In this document: positions 15,000 to 22,155 of the stretch, piece by piece
Position numbering within the stretch: the first letter of the stretch is position 1
Layout: every line of letters begins with the position of its first letter
Source: Dictyostelium discoideum
Lineage: Eukaryota
Assembly: GCA_000004695.1 (NCBI GenBank)
Contig: CM000152.2
Coordinates: 6,208,001 to 6,272,000, forward strand
DNA: 64,000 nucleotides
Reading direction: 5' to 3'
Notes under the pieces: model-generated
Database searches by the model: none
Told to the model about the DNA's origin: nothing
What the model saw: the letters and a program-made list of their open reading frames with translations, nothing else
Translations under genes and position numbers: made by a program

Positions 15000-15954
15000 A
15001 ATTAAAGAAATAAATAAAAAAAGAATTTAAAAGTTTCTTTAAATATATTTATATTAAAAAAAAAAAAAAAAAAAAAAAGGTTGTTGTTATCTTTTTTTTA
15101 TTCATTTTTAATGTTGGCATATATCATCAAAAAAAAAAAAAAAATTTAAAATAAAATTTGAAAAATAATAAAAATAATAATAATTATTTGTTTTAAACCC
15201 ATAATAATTAAAAACCATTTTATCAAGGCCACCTTTAATTAGATTAGAAAATTATAAAAAAAAAGATAATATCTAAAAATGTATTAATAAAATGAGAACA
15301 ATAATCTCAAGAAGTAAATTAAAGATCTATATCTAGGTTATTTATTTATTTATTTTATTTTTTTGTATAAAATTTTTAATTTTAATTTATTTTTATTTGC
15401 ATTAAAAAAAGTAAAATAATTAGAAATAAAAAATTCTTCATTTCCATTTTTATTTTTTTTTCATTTTTTTTTTTTTTAAACAATCATATAATTTTATTTA
15501 TTTTTAATATAGATTTAATATAAATAAATAGAGCACTCAAAAGTACACAAAATGATAAAAAATATATAAAAAACGAATTTTAATTATTTTTTATTTTTTT
15601 ATTTTTTTTTTTTTTTAATCAAAATTTATTTTTAGGATTTAATTAAATTGTTTTATGAATTAAATCTGATCATTTGTTTTTTTCTTTTAAAAATCTTATT
15701 TTTTATTCCCTCTAATTAATTAAAAAATTAAAAAATAATTACAAAAAAATGAATGATAATCAAATTATAAAAAAATATTTTCAGATTATTTAGAAAAAAA
15801 AAAATTAAAAAAAAAAGAATGATTACATTCATTTTTCATATCACTTAAATTTGTTGTTTCAAAAAAAAAAATAAAAAAAAAAGAAAGTCAAGAAAATAAT
15901 TATTATTTCACTAATATCATTTTTAAAAAGGTTTTTTATTTTTATTTTTACTAG

Positions 15955-16195
15955 AGAATGGATTTAAACTAACAACATTTATTTGAACATTAATAGATTT
16001 ACTTATTAAAAATATCCAATAACTTTTTTTTATTGTCATAGATTTTATTTTTTATAAATAAAAAATACCAATAATATATAAATATTATAATAAAATAATA
16101 ATAATAATAATAATAATAATAATAATAAAAATTAATAGCAAAGTATTAAAAGTAAGAGGTAGTGATTTGGTTATTTAAATTAATTTCCCAAGATT
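15955..16195. repeat. Dispersed repeat blocks X (gaatggatttaaact...tattaaaaatatccaataactttt), (ATT)n and Y (ccaaatcactacctcttacttttaatactttg, reverse orientation here); start of the left copy of the inverted segmental duplication
   Basis: Block X also occurs at 21345-21435 (+) and 53690-53760 (-). Block Y occurs at 20851-20900 (+) and 53495-53545 (+). The X-(ATT)n-Y order is mirrored at 53495-53760. Confidence 0.7.
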
Positions 16196-17356
16196 GGAAA
16201 GCTATCATGTTTACGGATAATTTAACCACATGACTTTTGCTTTTGCCAGAATAATATTTTTTTGGATTTGGTAATCAGCAGGAGTTTTAATATCAATAGA
16301 GGTAGAGTCAGCAGCAATTGCACGATAAAGCACATTAGATATATGATGTTTTAAAAAGCCAACTAATTCAACAAGTTTATCATATCTCTTTTCCATTATT
16401 TCCTTGCATACAACTCAAAGTGAATGAATGGTTTGACTATAGTGACTTTGAAATGTTTTTGGACTAATATCAAAAGTAACTCATATCTCATTAATTGGAA
16501 GATATTGTTCGCATCACGATAGAGTCTAACACAAAAAAAAAAAATTAAAATAAAAATAAAAATTTGTGATCAGCTTTTGCAGCTCAAAAATTCTTCTTTT
16601 TTTTTTCTTTTGGATCTTTATCTTTACTAAAATTGGAAACATGAAAATAAATAAAAAAATGAAAATAAAAAAAATTAAAAAATTAAAAAACATAAATAGC
16701 AATTAATAATTAATAAACAAAAAAATAATAATAATTCAATAAACTTTATTTGTTTTTTTATTTATTTGTACCAAAAAAAAAAAAAAAAAAATATAGATAA
16801 ATGTTTTTCTTTTTTTATTATTTCATATTCTATTATTTTTTATACCCACCAATAATTACAAACCATTTTATCGAATTTACTTGGATAAAACTTAAAAAAA
16901 AAATTGATTTTTAAAAAAATTAATAATAAACCAAATTTAAAAAAAAAAAAACAATAAAAATAATAACCTAATTTACGAAAAAAAAAAAAAAAAATCATCT
17001 TTTAATAGGGGGTGATTTTAAGAGATCTTTCAATATTTTTATCAAGGCATTTAATGGGCCAAACTTAAAATTTTTAAAAATAAATGAATAGATATTAAGA
17101 AAACACCACCCAAATAAAAAAAAAAAAAAAATGACAACAATATCTCAAGGAAAAAAATTAAAGACCAAGTTTAAATTATTTGAAATCACCCCTTTTTAAA
17201 AAAAGATTTTTTTTGTTTTATTTTTTGTAAATTTGGTTTATTATTATTATTATGATTATTATTATTTATTAAATTTAATTTTTTTTTTAAATTTAAAGTA
17301 TAAATATTTTTTTTTATTTTTTTTTATAATCATTAAATATATTTTTAAAATCAACC

Positions 17357-19440: not shown

Positions 19441-20979
19441 TTTTTATAAATATCAATCGTTTTTTTATTCAAAACAGATATAAATTTAATTTAATTGGTT
19501 GTTAAAAAAAAAAAAATAATAAAAAAAAAAATAAAAAAAAAAAAAGTGAAAACTTTCAAAAAAAAAAAAAAAAAAAAAAAAAAAAAAAAAAAACAAATAA
19601 TTCAAATAGTATAGTTATCTATCTTCGAAATAAAAAATAAAAATTGATAATTGATTTTTTTAAATAATTACAAATTTATTTTAACAAAGAATTTAATTTA
19701 ATTAAACTTAATGGAATAAAAAAAGAATATATTATCTAAATTTATAAATAAAATGAGAAGAAATTTGTTCTTACCCCGAACTTTAAAATTTTTAAAATTT
19801 TTTTATTTTAATTATCGATCAAATTGTCTACCATCTTTTGGAGTGTTCCACCAATTTTTGGTAATAAATCAACATTTGGTAATTGAAACACTTGAAAGTA
19901 AATTGTTATTTATTTTTTAAACAATCAAATAACTTTTTGAAATTAGTTTTTTTTTTGTTTGGTTTAATAAATGTTTTTAGTTGAAGAAAAAAAAAAGAGT
20001 GATAATTTCTTTTTTAATTAGAACAAACTCAAAATGTGGGATGTGAGAATTTTTATATGGAAAAAAAAAAAAATTGCTTTAATGCCTATGTTTTAAATAA
20101 TTAAAACCAGTTTCTACCAAAATAAAATTAAAAATAAATATTTAACAGTGTTTCTAAATTGTGGTATTTTGTTAAAATAAAAAAATAAAAAAAAAATTAA
20201 TCCACAAAATTTTATTTTTTTTTTTTTTTTTAACAAAATGCCGCAATTCGGATTTGTTGTGGCAGAAAATAAAAAAAAAACTTTTAAACAATTTAACTTT
20301 TTTAATAAATTTTTATTTTATCCTTTTTATTTTATGTTCAAAATTATCTGTATCAAAAAAAAAATATAGATAAATGTTTTTCTTTTTTATTTTTTATTTT
20401 CATATTCTTTTATTTTTTATGCCCACCAATAATTACAAACCATTTTACAAAGGCATTTAATTGGATTAAACTTAATAAATAAATGATTAGATATTAAGAA
20501 AACACCATTCAAAAAAAAAAAAAAAGAGAACAATATCTCAAGGAAAAGAAGCAACCTACAATTGCATTATCCAATAAAAAAAAAAAAAAAAAAAAAAGGG
20601 AGGAGTATTATGGGAAAAATAGCCAAAAATGGTTTTTTGAAATGTTTTGTTTTATTATTGCCCAAAAAATATTTTTTATTTTTATTACAAAAAAAGATAC
20701 TAAAGTGAAGAGGTTAATAAAAGAGAACAAAAAAAAATTGGATTTATTGGCCAAAAAAAAAAAAAAAATTTTTTATATTTAAAGTTTTCAAATAATTTAA
20801 AAAATCACCCCTTTTTAAATTATTCAATCTGGGTAATTATTTTAAATAACCAAATCACTACCTCTTACTTTTAATACTTTGTTATTAATTTTTATTTTAT
20901 TATTATTATTATTATTATTATTATTATTATTATTATTATTATTATTATTATTATTATTATTATTATTATTATTATTATT

Positions 20980-21270
20980 ATTATTATTATTTTTATTATT
21001 ATGATTATTATTATTTATTAAATTTAATTTTTTTTTTTAAATTTAAAAGTATAAATATTTTTTTTTTATTTTTTTTTATAATCATTAAATATATTTTTAA
21101 AATCAACCATGTCTAAAGAAATTGAATTTAAATTGGAGTTATTAAAACTTGAAAAAGAACATCAAGAAAAGTTAGAGAAAGAAGGTTATAAACAAATTTC
21201 AAGTGGAAAAGGTTAAGTAAAGAAGAAAAGCCTTTACAATCGGTTTCTTCCTTCAATAATCCAAAAAACA
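20980..21270 (+). pseudogene. Truncated third copy of the 284-aa family gene: duplicated promoter/5' flank plus the first ~45 codons, disrupted by a deletion (..GKG|*)
   Basis: Bases 20980-21108 are near-identical to 17226-17356. ATG at 21109. MSKEIEFKLELLKLEKEHQEKLEKEGYKQISSGKG is followed by TAA created by a deletion relative to 17357-17480. Homology ends at about 21269 and runs into repeat block X. Confidence 0.7.
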
Positions 21271-22155
21271 TATGAAGAATATCAAGCATTGATTCATGAG
21301 CTGCAATTGTTTCGATTGGTGATAATTTGAATGTAGTTTTTACTAGGGAATGGATTTAAACTTCTAGCAACATTTACTTGAATATAAATAGTTTGAATAG
21401 ATTGGCTTATTAAAAATATCCAATAACTTTGCTACAACTCCAAAATCTTCCCATTGTGATTGGGTATTACGATGTGCTAAAATCCTCAAGATTCGTCATG
21501 ATTTCAAACTACGTTCTAAATTTAATACAAGATTCACATAGTTTTCAATAATTGTACCCAGTGGTTGGATTAAGATTATATGATTTCAAACTATGTTCTA
21601 AATTTAATAAACATTCATTAAAATTCTTTTTATTTCTTTTGAATCTTTATCTTTATTAAAATTCAAAATAAAATAAAAAAAAAAATGAAAAAAATGGGAA
21701 AATGAAAAAAAAAATGAAAAAAAAAATAAAAAAAAATAACCTTTTAGGTTTTTAAATAATAAAAGAATTATTATTATTTCACTATTATCATTTTAAAAAA
21801 TTTTTTTTATTTTTAAAATTATGAATAGACAATAAAAAGTTTAATAATTAAATTTGAGAAATAAAAAAAAAAAAAAAAAAAAAATTCAATCAAATTTGAG
21901 AAATAATAATAATAAATCCATCCAACTAATTAATTAATTATTGACTGTTTTATTTTTTTTTTTTTTTTTTTTTAACCAATTTAATTATATTAAACTTAAA
22001 TAGAAAATTAAAAAAAAAAAAACAAAAAATATATTATATAAAAATGTATAAATAAAATGAGAACAAATATCTCAAGGAACAACTAATAATTGCATCTTGA
22101 ACTTTTAAATTTTTTTTATTTTAATTTTATTTTTTTTTATTTTATTTTATTTTAT

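Follow-up and report, generated by a model that had tools for sequence, protein, structure and literature searches.

Recurring short sequence blocks at a Dictyostelium discoideum BB_PF locus as probable remnants of local gene-cluster duplication

Genes and recurring cores at the locus

The window analyzed here is a 64-kb stretch of chromosome 3 of D. discoideum AX4, and all positions are given in window coordinates (Table 1). Two BB_PF (monalysin-like) genes, DDB_G0282737 (gene A) and DDB_G0282815 (gene B), are surrounded by two zones of short recurring cores, and all 21 core copies were confined to ~15.2–22.2 kb (arm A) and ~49.1–53.9 kb (arm B). An earlier note on this DNA had claimed that such cores exist and recur, and this was borne out at a frequency far above chance, as no match to c1 (ATGAGAACAATATCTCAAGG) with up to one mismatch was expected in shuffled sequences. 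The note was also correct that the cores are not simple sequence; it placed them rightly, but up to ~25 nt off. Of its claim of at least five copies each, the recurrence stood, but c2 and c4 have only four good copies each. Matches to c1 with up to one mismatch were found in module copies 2, 4, and 8, and matches with indels in copies 1 and 5. The c2 and c4 sites lie in copies 2, 4, 6, and 7, with a degenerate c2 in copy 1, and an additional core beyond the four of the note, c5, was found, for example, in copies 2, 4, and 7. Searches of the remaining ~52 kb of the window, and of five unlinked BB_PF loci of other Dictyostelium genomes (~104 kb; L003, L004, L006, L007, and L008), detected no cores. 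A metagenome scan with c2 returned a single match, a chance 22-mer within a bacterial membrane-protein gene (33% GC), and a literature search on the gene identifiers, and on the core sequences as published motifs, found nothing relevant.

Table 1. Features of the BB_PF locus and the core sites within them, in window coordinates; (−) marks core sites on the minus strand
Feature	Position	Strand	Content
Module copy 1 (degenerate)	15185–15330	+	c2-like 15197–15222, c4-like ~15222–15245, c1-like 15293–15312
Module copy 2 (split in two)	16830–17165	+	c2 16845–16870, c4' duplicate ~16864–16893, inverted G-unit 16888–17038 (c3 17004–17026), c4 17040–17057, c5 17087–17114, c1 17131–17150
BB_PF promoter, gene A	17165–17356	+	forward G-unit with c3 17180–17197 (−) (footprint alignment)
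BB_PF gene A, DDB_G0282737	17357–18211	+	284 aa; Pfam PF18063, E 1e-66
Module copy 3	19655–19800	+	degenerate c2, c4, c1; joined to helicase 3' fragment
Tandem-duplication junction	19801–19884	+	helicase 3' UTR and last codons (to 19843), polA2 3'-exon fragment 19844–19884
Module copy 4 (compact, best preserved)	20405–20600	+	c2 20422–20447, c4 20446–20463, c5 20488–20513, c1 20524–20543
G-unit with c3	20742–20819	+	c3 20799–20816 (−); upstream of truncated BB_PF copy
Proximal promoter and truncated BB_PF pseudogene psi-C	20960–21273	+	coding remnant from 21109
Module copy 5 (in-situ spacer)	21960–22100	+	c1 22058–22077; c4 degenerate; c2 lost
Module copy 6, arm B	49127–49230	−	c2 49185–49210 (−), c4 49169–49186 (−); truncated past c5
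Arm-B copy of helicase/polA2 junction	49759–49879	−	longer polA2 fragment, 49759–49848
BB_PF gene B, DDB_G0282815	50530–51384	−	284 aa; 85% identical to gene A
Promoter G-unit tandem array	51514–51882	−	136 bp x 2.7 copies; c3 51570–51592, 51706–51728, 51840–51862
Module copy 7, arm B	51950–52270	−	c2 52231–52256 (−), c4' 52215–52232, inverted G-unit (c3 52070–52094 (−)), c4 52039–52056 (−), c5 51981–52007; duplication-inversion-duplication as in arm A; c1 deleted
Module copy 8 (partial)	53775–53873	−	c1 53827–53846 (−) and sequence 3' of c1

Duplicated blocks and the spacer module

Duplicated blocks were delimited by dust-filtered self-BLAST of the window; a direct-repeat search was dominated by low-complexity families. 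All 21 core copies fell, by BLAST or alignment, inside duplicated blocks of 100–1700 bp, in contrast to their earlier description as embedded in non-homologous AT-rich DNA. The arms matched over 17180–18832 and 51587–49901 (1.7 kb, 91.5% identity), 16692–17254, which holds module copy 2, and 52418–51784 (82.5%), 19879–20505 and 49707–49127 (86%), and 20494–20595 and 53873–53775, the latter being module copy 8 (93%), while within arm A 15243–15398 matched 22007–22157 (73%). The psi-C region was 92% identical to 17238–17531 and 94% to 51532–51210. The homology ran colinearly past the cores into the flanking gene fragments, as expected of segmental duplication. In one pair of A/B blocks, the core and non-core identities were 88.5% and 90.2%, and in another 100% and 94.5%; conservation is no higher in the cores than in the remainder of their own blocks. 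They seem isolated by eye because the intervening DNA consists of homopolymers and microsatellites rich in indels.

The view of the cores as independent dispersed units also failed, as c2, c4, c5, and c1 form a single module of ~170 bp, in an order that was invariable across the eight aligned copies. The home of the module is the spacer separating the 3' ends of BB_PF and a DEAD-box helicase gene. Copy 5 closely follows the helicase stop codon (22156) and matched 11014–11119 of L002, the syntenic locus of another isolate, at 74%. Copy 1 lies 3' of the polA2 stop codon, and its block (15163–15398) matched 19632–19762 and 22007–22157 at 71–73% and L002 10976–11109 at 76.6%. Copy 4 was 97% identical to 49127–49388. 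Between AX4 and L002, the module was 74% identical and the neighboring DNA 93–94%; it was lost in L005, and c1 alone was left in L011. At the sequence level, we found no evidence of constraint or function in the spacer module.

At 19843/4, the helicase and polA2 fragments are fused head-to-tail, and alignment showed that the exact junction, ...CTTTTGGAG/TGTTCCACCAATT..., is common to this site and to 49848 in arm B. The junction was absent from the syntenic loci L002, L005, and L011 (intact genes only). These three loci differ in BB_PF copy number, carry an inverted Rpb4, and hold helicase and polA2 fragments of their own, suggesting that rearrangement at the locus is recurrent. The promoter unit (G-unit) array in arm B was detected by Tandem Repeats Finder with 94% matches and a score of 652. 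The filled site, in which c2 and c4' are followed by the inverted G-unit and c4, was compared with empty sites at 20.4, 49.2, and 15.2 kb and in L002. A Pfam search of pseudogene X (16140–16530) and of an ORF remnant in arm B (52680–52965) gave no significant family. Near-perfect hairpins were also observed in arm B at 53335–53484, and these could be a miRNA or siRNA locus arising from rearrangement.

The BB_PF promoter and c3

Footprint alignment showed that c3 (AATCACCCCTTT) is invariant ~160–200 bp upstream of the start codon in five BB_PF genes from four lineages, a conserved position such as is expected of a G-box element, and that the only other invariant promoter islands are a TATA-like box and the leader. 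The gene A promoter also holds GTAAATTTGG, the TATA-like AAGTATAAA, and a leader sequence. The window holds 12 CACCCC hexamers, seven of which are c3 copies; two c3 copies lie upstream of DDB_G0282737 and four upstream of DDB_G0282815, in both orientations. The G-unit at 20742–20819 aligned locally to the arm-B tandem unit with a score of 79, as compared with a mean of 22 and a maximum of 37–46 for shuffled sequences. The G-box recognized as the GBF consensus is (T/G)G(T/G)G(T/G)G(T/G), and conserved G/C-rich boxes occur in the promoters of the duplicated sigN family (PMC2257962). c3 resembles these in being an isolated G/C-rich box within an AT-rich promoter, in being conserved across a gene family of recent duplicates, and in occurring several times and in both orientations in a promoter. 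As read from its G-strand, GGGGTGA, it agrees with the GBF consensus at six of seven positions, the seventh being A.

On the basis of its conservation, c3 probably functions as a transcription-factor site in this BB_PF subfamily, although the isolates are close (neighboring DNA is 88–94% identical), so that conservation over 12–26 nt is only moderate evidence of constraint. In L002, BB_PF copy 1 has no c3 upstream, and copy 2 has it only in scrambled form. c3 was absent upstream of the distant BB_PF paralogues in L003, L004, D. firmibasis (L006 and L007), and D. citrinum (L008), so that it is confined to the syntenic subfamily instead of being family-wide. The earlier proposal of shared regulatory or terminator modules holds in part: c3 keeps a fixed distance from the BB_PF starts, and in AX4, L002, and L011 the c2-c4-c1 module is found where the 3' ends of convergent genes meet, but nothing indicates constraint on this module, its AX4–L002 identity, given above, falling below that nearby. 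It is a speculative and rather unlikely suggestion that c3 is a lineage-specific enhancer, the copy number of which tunes expression of both paralogues, and, separately, that the arm-B hairpins are an unannotated small-RNA locus.

Origin of the recurring blocks

We consider, with a probability of roughly 0.8, that the recurring short blocks are remnants of local duplications of the BB_PF gene cluster, that is, of ordinary segmental duplication; the genome evolution at this locus is of an ordinary kind. The cores would be the surviving information-rich islands of two ancestral non-coding segments of a small BB_PF gene cluster, one being the spacer module c2-c4-c5-c1, originally between the convergent BB_PF and helicase 3' ends, and the other the BB_PF promoter, with c3 as its distal C-rich box. 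Both segments would have been multiplied along with their neighbors via DNA-level rearrangement and not by transposition. The junction shows that the polA2-helicase interval was duplicated in tandem, and an inverted duplication of ~5 kb reached a site ~30 kb distant; the latter came after the former because the inverted copy carries the identical junction. The 136-bp promoter unit was triplicated in tandem in arm B, and, prior to separation of the arms, a duplication-inversion-duplication set an inverted promoter unit into the spacer module, a pattern that suggests, indirectly, replication template switching. Indels in A/T runs and (ATT)n would later have wiped out the similarity between the GC-containing islands in older copies, which is why the islands look isolated and dispersed. 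Against this reading, block identities from 71% to 98% require several duplication epochs or gene conversion, and a low-copy dispersed family would probably have been missed in the ~52 kb of other window sequence and the 104 kb of unlinked loci.

The arrangement is of the broad kind seen when gene families expand locally, and it resembles the segmental duplications of at least 15 kb reported for D. discoideum laboratory stocks (PMC2643946), in which an interval is gained with its genes, promoters, and spacers, in its head-to-tail junction with short microhomology, a nearby inverted copy, and pseudogenised extra copies. Unlike those, the duplications here are ~2–5 kb long, old (as judged from the identities above), fixed in the reference, and nested with small tandem and inverted sub-duplications.

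The earlier note had offered a mobile element as one of its two readings, and a small non-autonomous MITE-like transposon, spread by independent insertions and perhaps by a PIF/Harbinger-type transposase, could explain copies in both orientations, a 10-bp direct repeat (TTTTATCAAG) bracketing the inverted G-unit in arm B, and the presence of a DDE_Tnp_1/DDE_Tnp_4 transposase gene within the same interval of isolate L011. The blocks are indeed like MITEs and Dictyostelium thug-S/T and DDT-S in being short, AT-rich, multi-copy non-coding sequences in both orientations near genes. They have, however, no terminal inverted repeats, target-site duplications, or sharp boundaries. No block boundary carried terminal inverted repeats; just one unit looks like an insertion, and its two ends, AATTTACTTGG... 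and ...TTTTCAATA, do not form an inverted repeat. The apparent 7–10 bp repeat belongs to a ~35-bp duplicated c4 segment and is not a target-site duplication; other copies had no flanking repeats, and the comparison of filled and empty sites ruled out insertion of the G-unit as a MITE with a target-site duplication. Furthermore, the G-unit holds the same promoter position in four lineages, and every copy is colinear with adjacent gene fragments. The copies are confined, within the window and the five unlinked loci, to the single duplicated locus, which agrees, over that much sequence, with the genome-wide outcome that the note itself had named as pointing to duplicated-segment remnants. ORFs of the L011 transposase region (4801–7900) had no tblastn match in the window, ruling out a link to DDE_Tnp_4, and a tRNA-linked retroelement was likewise ruled out, the window having no tRNA genes. 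A mobile element as the source of the cores is not supported, and we regard it as very improbable.

It is also very unlikely that c2-c4-c1 is a selected functional unit, either a small ncRNA gene driven by a DUSE or a shared terminator/polyadenylation module. The DUSE is a CCC-containing element ~60 nt upstream of Dictyostelium ncRNA genes, of which Class I RNAs are marked by a stem, an 11-nt motif, and a CUGU end (PMC7919456); c2 holds a similar CCCA-type motif in CCCACCAA or ACCCATAA (ACCCAYAA). AATAAA precedes c1 in several copies, and the position at convergent 3' ends would suit a terminator. The CCC triplet is, however, not retained in L002 (CTCACCAA and AACACAAA), an AAATGTG box does not occur at the right spacing, and, unlike a DUSE, the motif is not followed by an ncRNA gene, a TGTG box, or a structure. 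Rfam gave no family at the gathering threshold in the window; over arm A, E ≤ 1 still yielded no match, and over arm B only generic, sub-threshold hairpin matches appeared. Folding did not exceed shuffled controls (z of −1.7 and −1.4); together with the L002 variants, these results ruled out the DUSE/Class I idea for c2. The loss or reduction of the module in L005 and L011, its divergence from L002, and its inconsistent gene contexts (3' of polA2, 5' of rpb4, and within the BB_PF upstream region) also argue against a functional unit. Ongoing gene conversion between the paralogous regions, instead of plain inheritance, is a possible, though doubtful, reason for the likeness of the islands. Adjacent blocks of the same arm pair differ, with 20244–20505 and 18592–18798 at 97–98% and 16692–17254 at the lower value given above, and the non-coding 3' flank (95.7%) exceeds the coding sequence (92.4%). 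However, differing duplication dates and locally variable indel rates account for the same pattern, and conversion would modify, not replace, duplication because it requires duplicated blocks beforehand.

The duplication reading implies that nested local duplications and indel decay in AT-rich DNA can mimic a family of short dispersed elements; in such genomes, before repeats seen by eye or with short-seed tools are ascribed to a mobile element, it should be established whether they are colinear. The polA2-helicase interval of chromosome 3 is a recurrent rearrangement site, at which BB_PF copy number differs in every isolate examined. As a positive outcome, c3 is a candidate promoter element of a monalysin-like subfamily little explored in Dictyostelium, and, if it is indeed an enhancer, local duplication of the promoter unit would be a route to regulatory divergence between paralogues.

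Duplicated blocks around the BB_PF genes

The window lies on D. discoideum AX4 chromosome 3, approximately 130 kb from the end of the 6.43-Mb contig, and is extremely AT-rich (GC 15–34%). All four short cores of the earlier note (c1–c4), together with a fifth added here (c5, GATATTAAGAAAACACC), recurred far above the dinucleotide-shuffle expectation; they are real, but the coordinates given in the earlier note are off by up to approximately 25 nt. The description of the DNA around them as otherwise non-homologous was wrong, as a dust-filtered self-BLAST placed the cores inside long homologous blocks (table). 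These blocks contained 21/21 core copies, which were confined to two zones, arm A (15.2–22.2 kb) and arm B (49.1–53.9 kb), amounting to 18% of the window. When A/B blocks were aligned globally, identity in one block was 88.5% in the cores vs 90.2% in columns outside cores and homopolymers, and in another 100% vs 94.5%; the cores are conserved no better than the rest of these blocks. The alignment gaps clustered in homopolymer runs, and the GC-containing islands catch the eye because indels have scrambled the AT-rich, low-complexity DNA that separates them. No further core copy was found elsewhere in the window, nor at five unlinked BB_PF loci (approximately 104 kb; L003, L004, D. firmibasis L006 and L007, and D. 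citrinum L008), suggesting, within this limited sampling, that the cores are confined to the duplicated locus. A metagenome search with c2 returned a single chance match, in a bacterial gene.

Genes and duplicated blocks (dust-filtered self-BLAST) in the window
Feature	Position	Strand	Partner	Identity	Details
polA2	first large exon 13198-14490; last exon ends 14999	+			DNA polymerase alpha subunit B; left zone, gene 1
DDB_G0282737	17357-18211	+			BB_PF gene, 284 aa, 'beta-barrel pore-forming' (monalysin-like) domain; left zone, gene 2
rpb4	18742-19440	-			with introns; left zone, gene 3
DEAD-box helicase gene	3' end 22156	-			left zone, gene 4
3-HAO					left zone, after DEAD-box helicase gene
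DDB_G0282815	50530-51384	-			second BB_PF gene, 85% identical to DDB_G0282737
Third BB_PF copy	starts 21109				truncated; self-BLAST
Block	17180-18832		51587-49901	91.5%	
Block	16692-17254		52418-51784	82.5%	
Block	19879-20505		49707-49127	86%	
Block	20494-20595		53873-53775	93%	
Block	20960-21273		51532-51210	94%	
Block	15243-15398		22007-22157	73%	

Two long perfect (ATT)n microsatellites were also observed (19257–19350 and 20895–20995), one within an rpb4 intron and the other in the promoter of the truncated BB_PF copy, where it is expanded relative to the short tract at 17240–17260. In the protein search (P0032, P0041), one BB_PF homologue (P0032) was 55% identical, and its source annotation states that gene knockout gives small aggregates in Dictyostelium. 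The closest non-dictyostelid matches were bacterial, with Myxococcus fulvus at 37% identity, which hints at a bacterial origin of this monalysin-like family.

The spacer module and the BB_PF promoter

An alignment of eight copies revealed that c2, c4, c5, and c1 stand in fixed order within a module of approximately 170 bp, best preserved at 20405–20600. In a diverged isolate, L002, the syntenic locus has a compact module (10967–11148) between the BB_PF stop (10855) and the helicase stop (11222); the AX4 copy at 21960–22100 occupies the equivalent position adjoining the helicase stop, as does a c1-bearing remnant in another isolate (L011). This places the home of the module in the spacer where the BB_PF and helicase genes converge at their 3' ends. 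The module was absent from the syntenic locus of a third isolate (L005), and its identity between AX4 and L002 was 74%, compared with 93–94% for the flanking genes and spacers.

In contrast to these cores, which show no sign of function, c3 is part of the predicted BB_PF promoter, a unit distinct from the spacer module. In a promoter footprint alignment, AATCACCCCTTT was invariant approximately 160–200 bp upstream of the start codon in AX4 genes A and B, L002 gene 3, L005, and L011 gene 3, and the only other invariant islands were GTAAATTTGG, the TATA-like AAGTATAAA, and the leader TATAATCATTAAATATATTTTT. AX4 B shared 26/26 positions of c3 with L002 gene 3, vs 81–83% identity for the adjoining coding sequences, and c3 was invariant in four lineages, so that constraint on c3 is moderately supported. 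On its G-strand, c3 reads GGGGTGA and agrees with the published GBF response element at 6/7 positions (PMC2257962), making c3 a candidate GBF response element, as a lead rather than an identification. The earlier proposal of shared regulatory or terminator modules is partly supported: c3 is probably a genuine promoter element co-amplified with the duplications.

Other sequences in the two arms

The interval 53335–53484 holds two hairpins of very high stability (MFE -57 and -54 kcal/mol; z -7 to -8; 0/200 shuffles as good). Their building block is a 16-nt motif, CATATTAATTTCAGCA, which occurs five times, in both orientations, and once more at 52424–52439. The hairpins gave only sub-threshold, miRNA-precursor-like Rfam matches and have no arm A equivalent, and a degenerate motif copy occurs in the L005 syntenic region (15536–15551); a locus for small-RNA hairpins is one possible reading, a palindromic scar left by rearrangement another. 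An unannotated pseudogene-like frame (16140–16530, minus strand; approximately 105 codons, with three in-frame TGA where Trp would fit) had no Pfam match, and its fragments were duplicated along with the modules, related pieces lying at 15936–16176, 21337–21740, and 53486–53767. Arm B alone carries an open 93-codon remnant of higher GC (52680–52965, minus strand; AETTEHAYTEFILTTEAV...NESNKR), with no significant Pfam family and no gene annotated there in the assembly.

Origin of the copies

At 19843/19844, the last helicase codons and 3' flank are joined head-to-tail to a polA2 3' exon fragment (...CTTTTGGAG|TGTTCCACCAATT..., microhomology TTTGG), the signature left when the polA2-helicase interval is duplicated in tandem. 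Arm B has the identical junction at 49848 and is therefore an inverted copy made after the tandem duplication, most of rpb4 having since been lost from it. The junction is absent from L002, L005, and L011, where only the intact genes occur. Each isolate shows its own arrangement of the interval. In L002, there are three BB_PF copies and rpb4 is inverted; in L005, a BB_PF gene lies upstream of polA2, and a pseudogene lies close to the helicase gene; L011 combines three BB_PF copies with a duplicated 262-aa helicase fragment and polA2 fragments that are inverted. The interval gives the impression of a hotspot of recurrent rearrangement.

The earlier note had suggested, as one explanation, a small non-autonomous mobile element. 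We looked for terminal inverted repeats and target-site duplications and found none, and the homology always runs on into neighbouring gene fragments. Two c3 copies (17004 and 52075) lie within an inverted promoter-unit copy between c2 and c4, itself lacking terminal inverted repeats. What resembles a target-site duplication of 10 bp, TTTTATCAAG, is where a duplicated c4 segment of approximately 35 bp begins (TATCAAGAATTTACTTGGATCAAACTTAA vs TATCAAGGCATTTAATTGGACTAAACTTAA). A 288-aa DDE_Tnp_1/DDE_Tnp_4 (PIF/Harbinger-type) transposase gene does lie between the rpb4 and BB_PF genes of L011 (4996–6286, GCA_054859205); the ORFs of this region (4801–7900) had no tblastn match in the window. A structured RNA gene found no support either: across arm A, Rfam gave no match with the threshold relaxed to E ≤ 1, the folding of the module could not be told apart from that of shuffled sequences (z -1.7, -1.4, and +1.2), the DUSE-like CCCA of c2 was not conserved in L002, and nothing like a Class I RNA (cf. 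PMC7919456) lay downstream of it. No tRNAs were found in the window.

Three c3 copies are explained by a promoter-unit tandem array in arm B (136 bp × 2.7). The inverted promoter unit was put between c2 and c4 by duplication, inversion, and renewed duplication, a pattern that replication template switching may fit better than transposition. We conclude that the cores are left over from nested, local segmental duplications of the BB_PF gene cluster, an ordinary case of a process that is well known.
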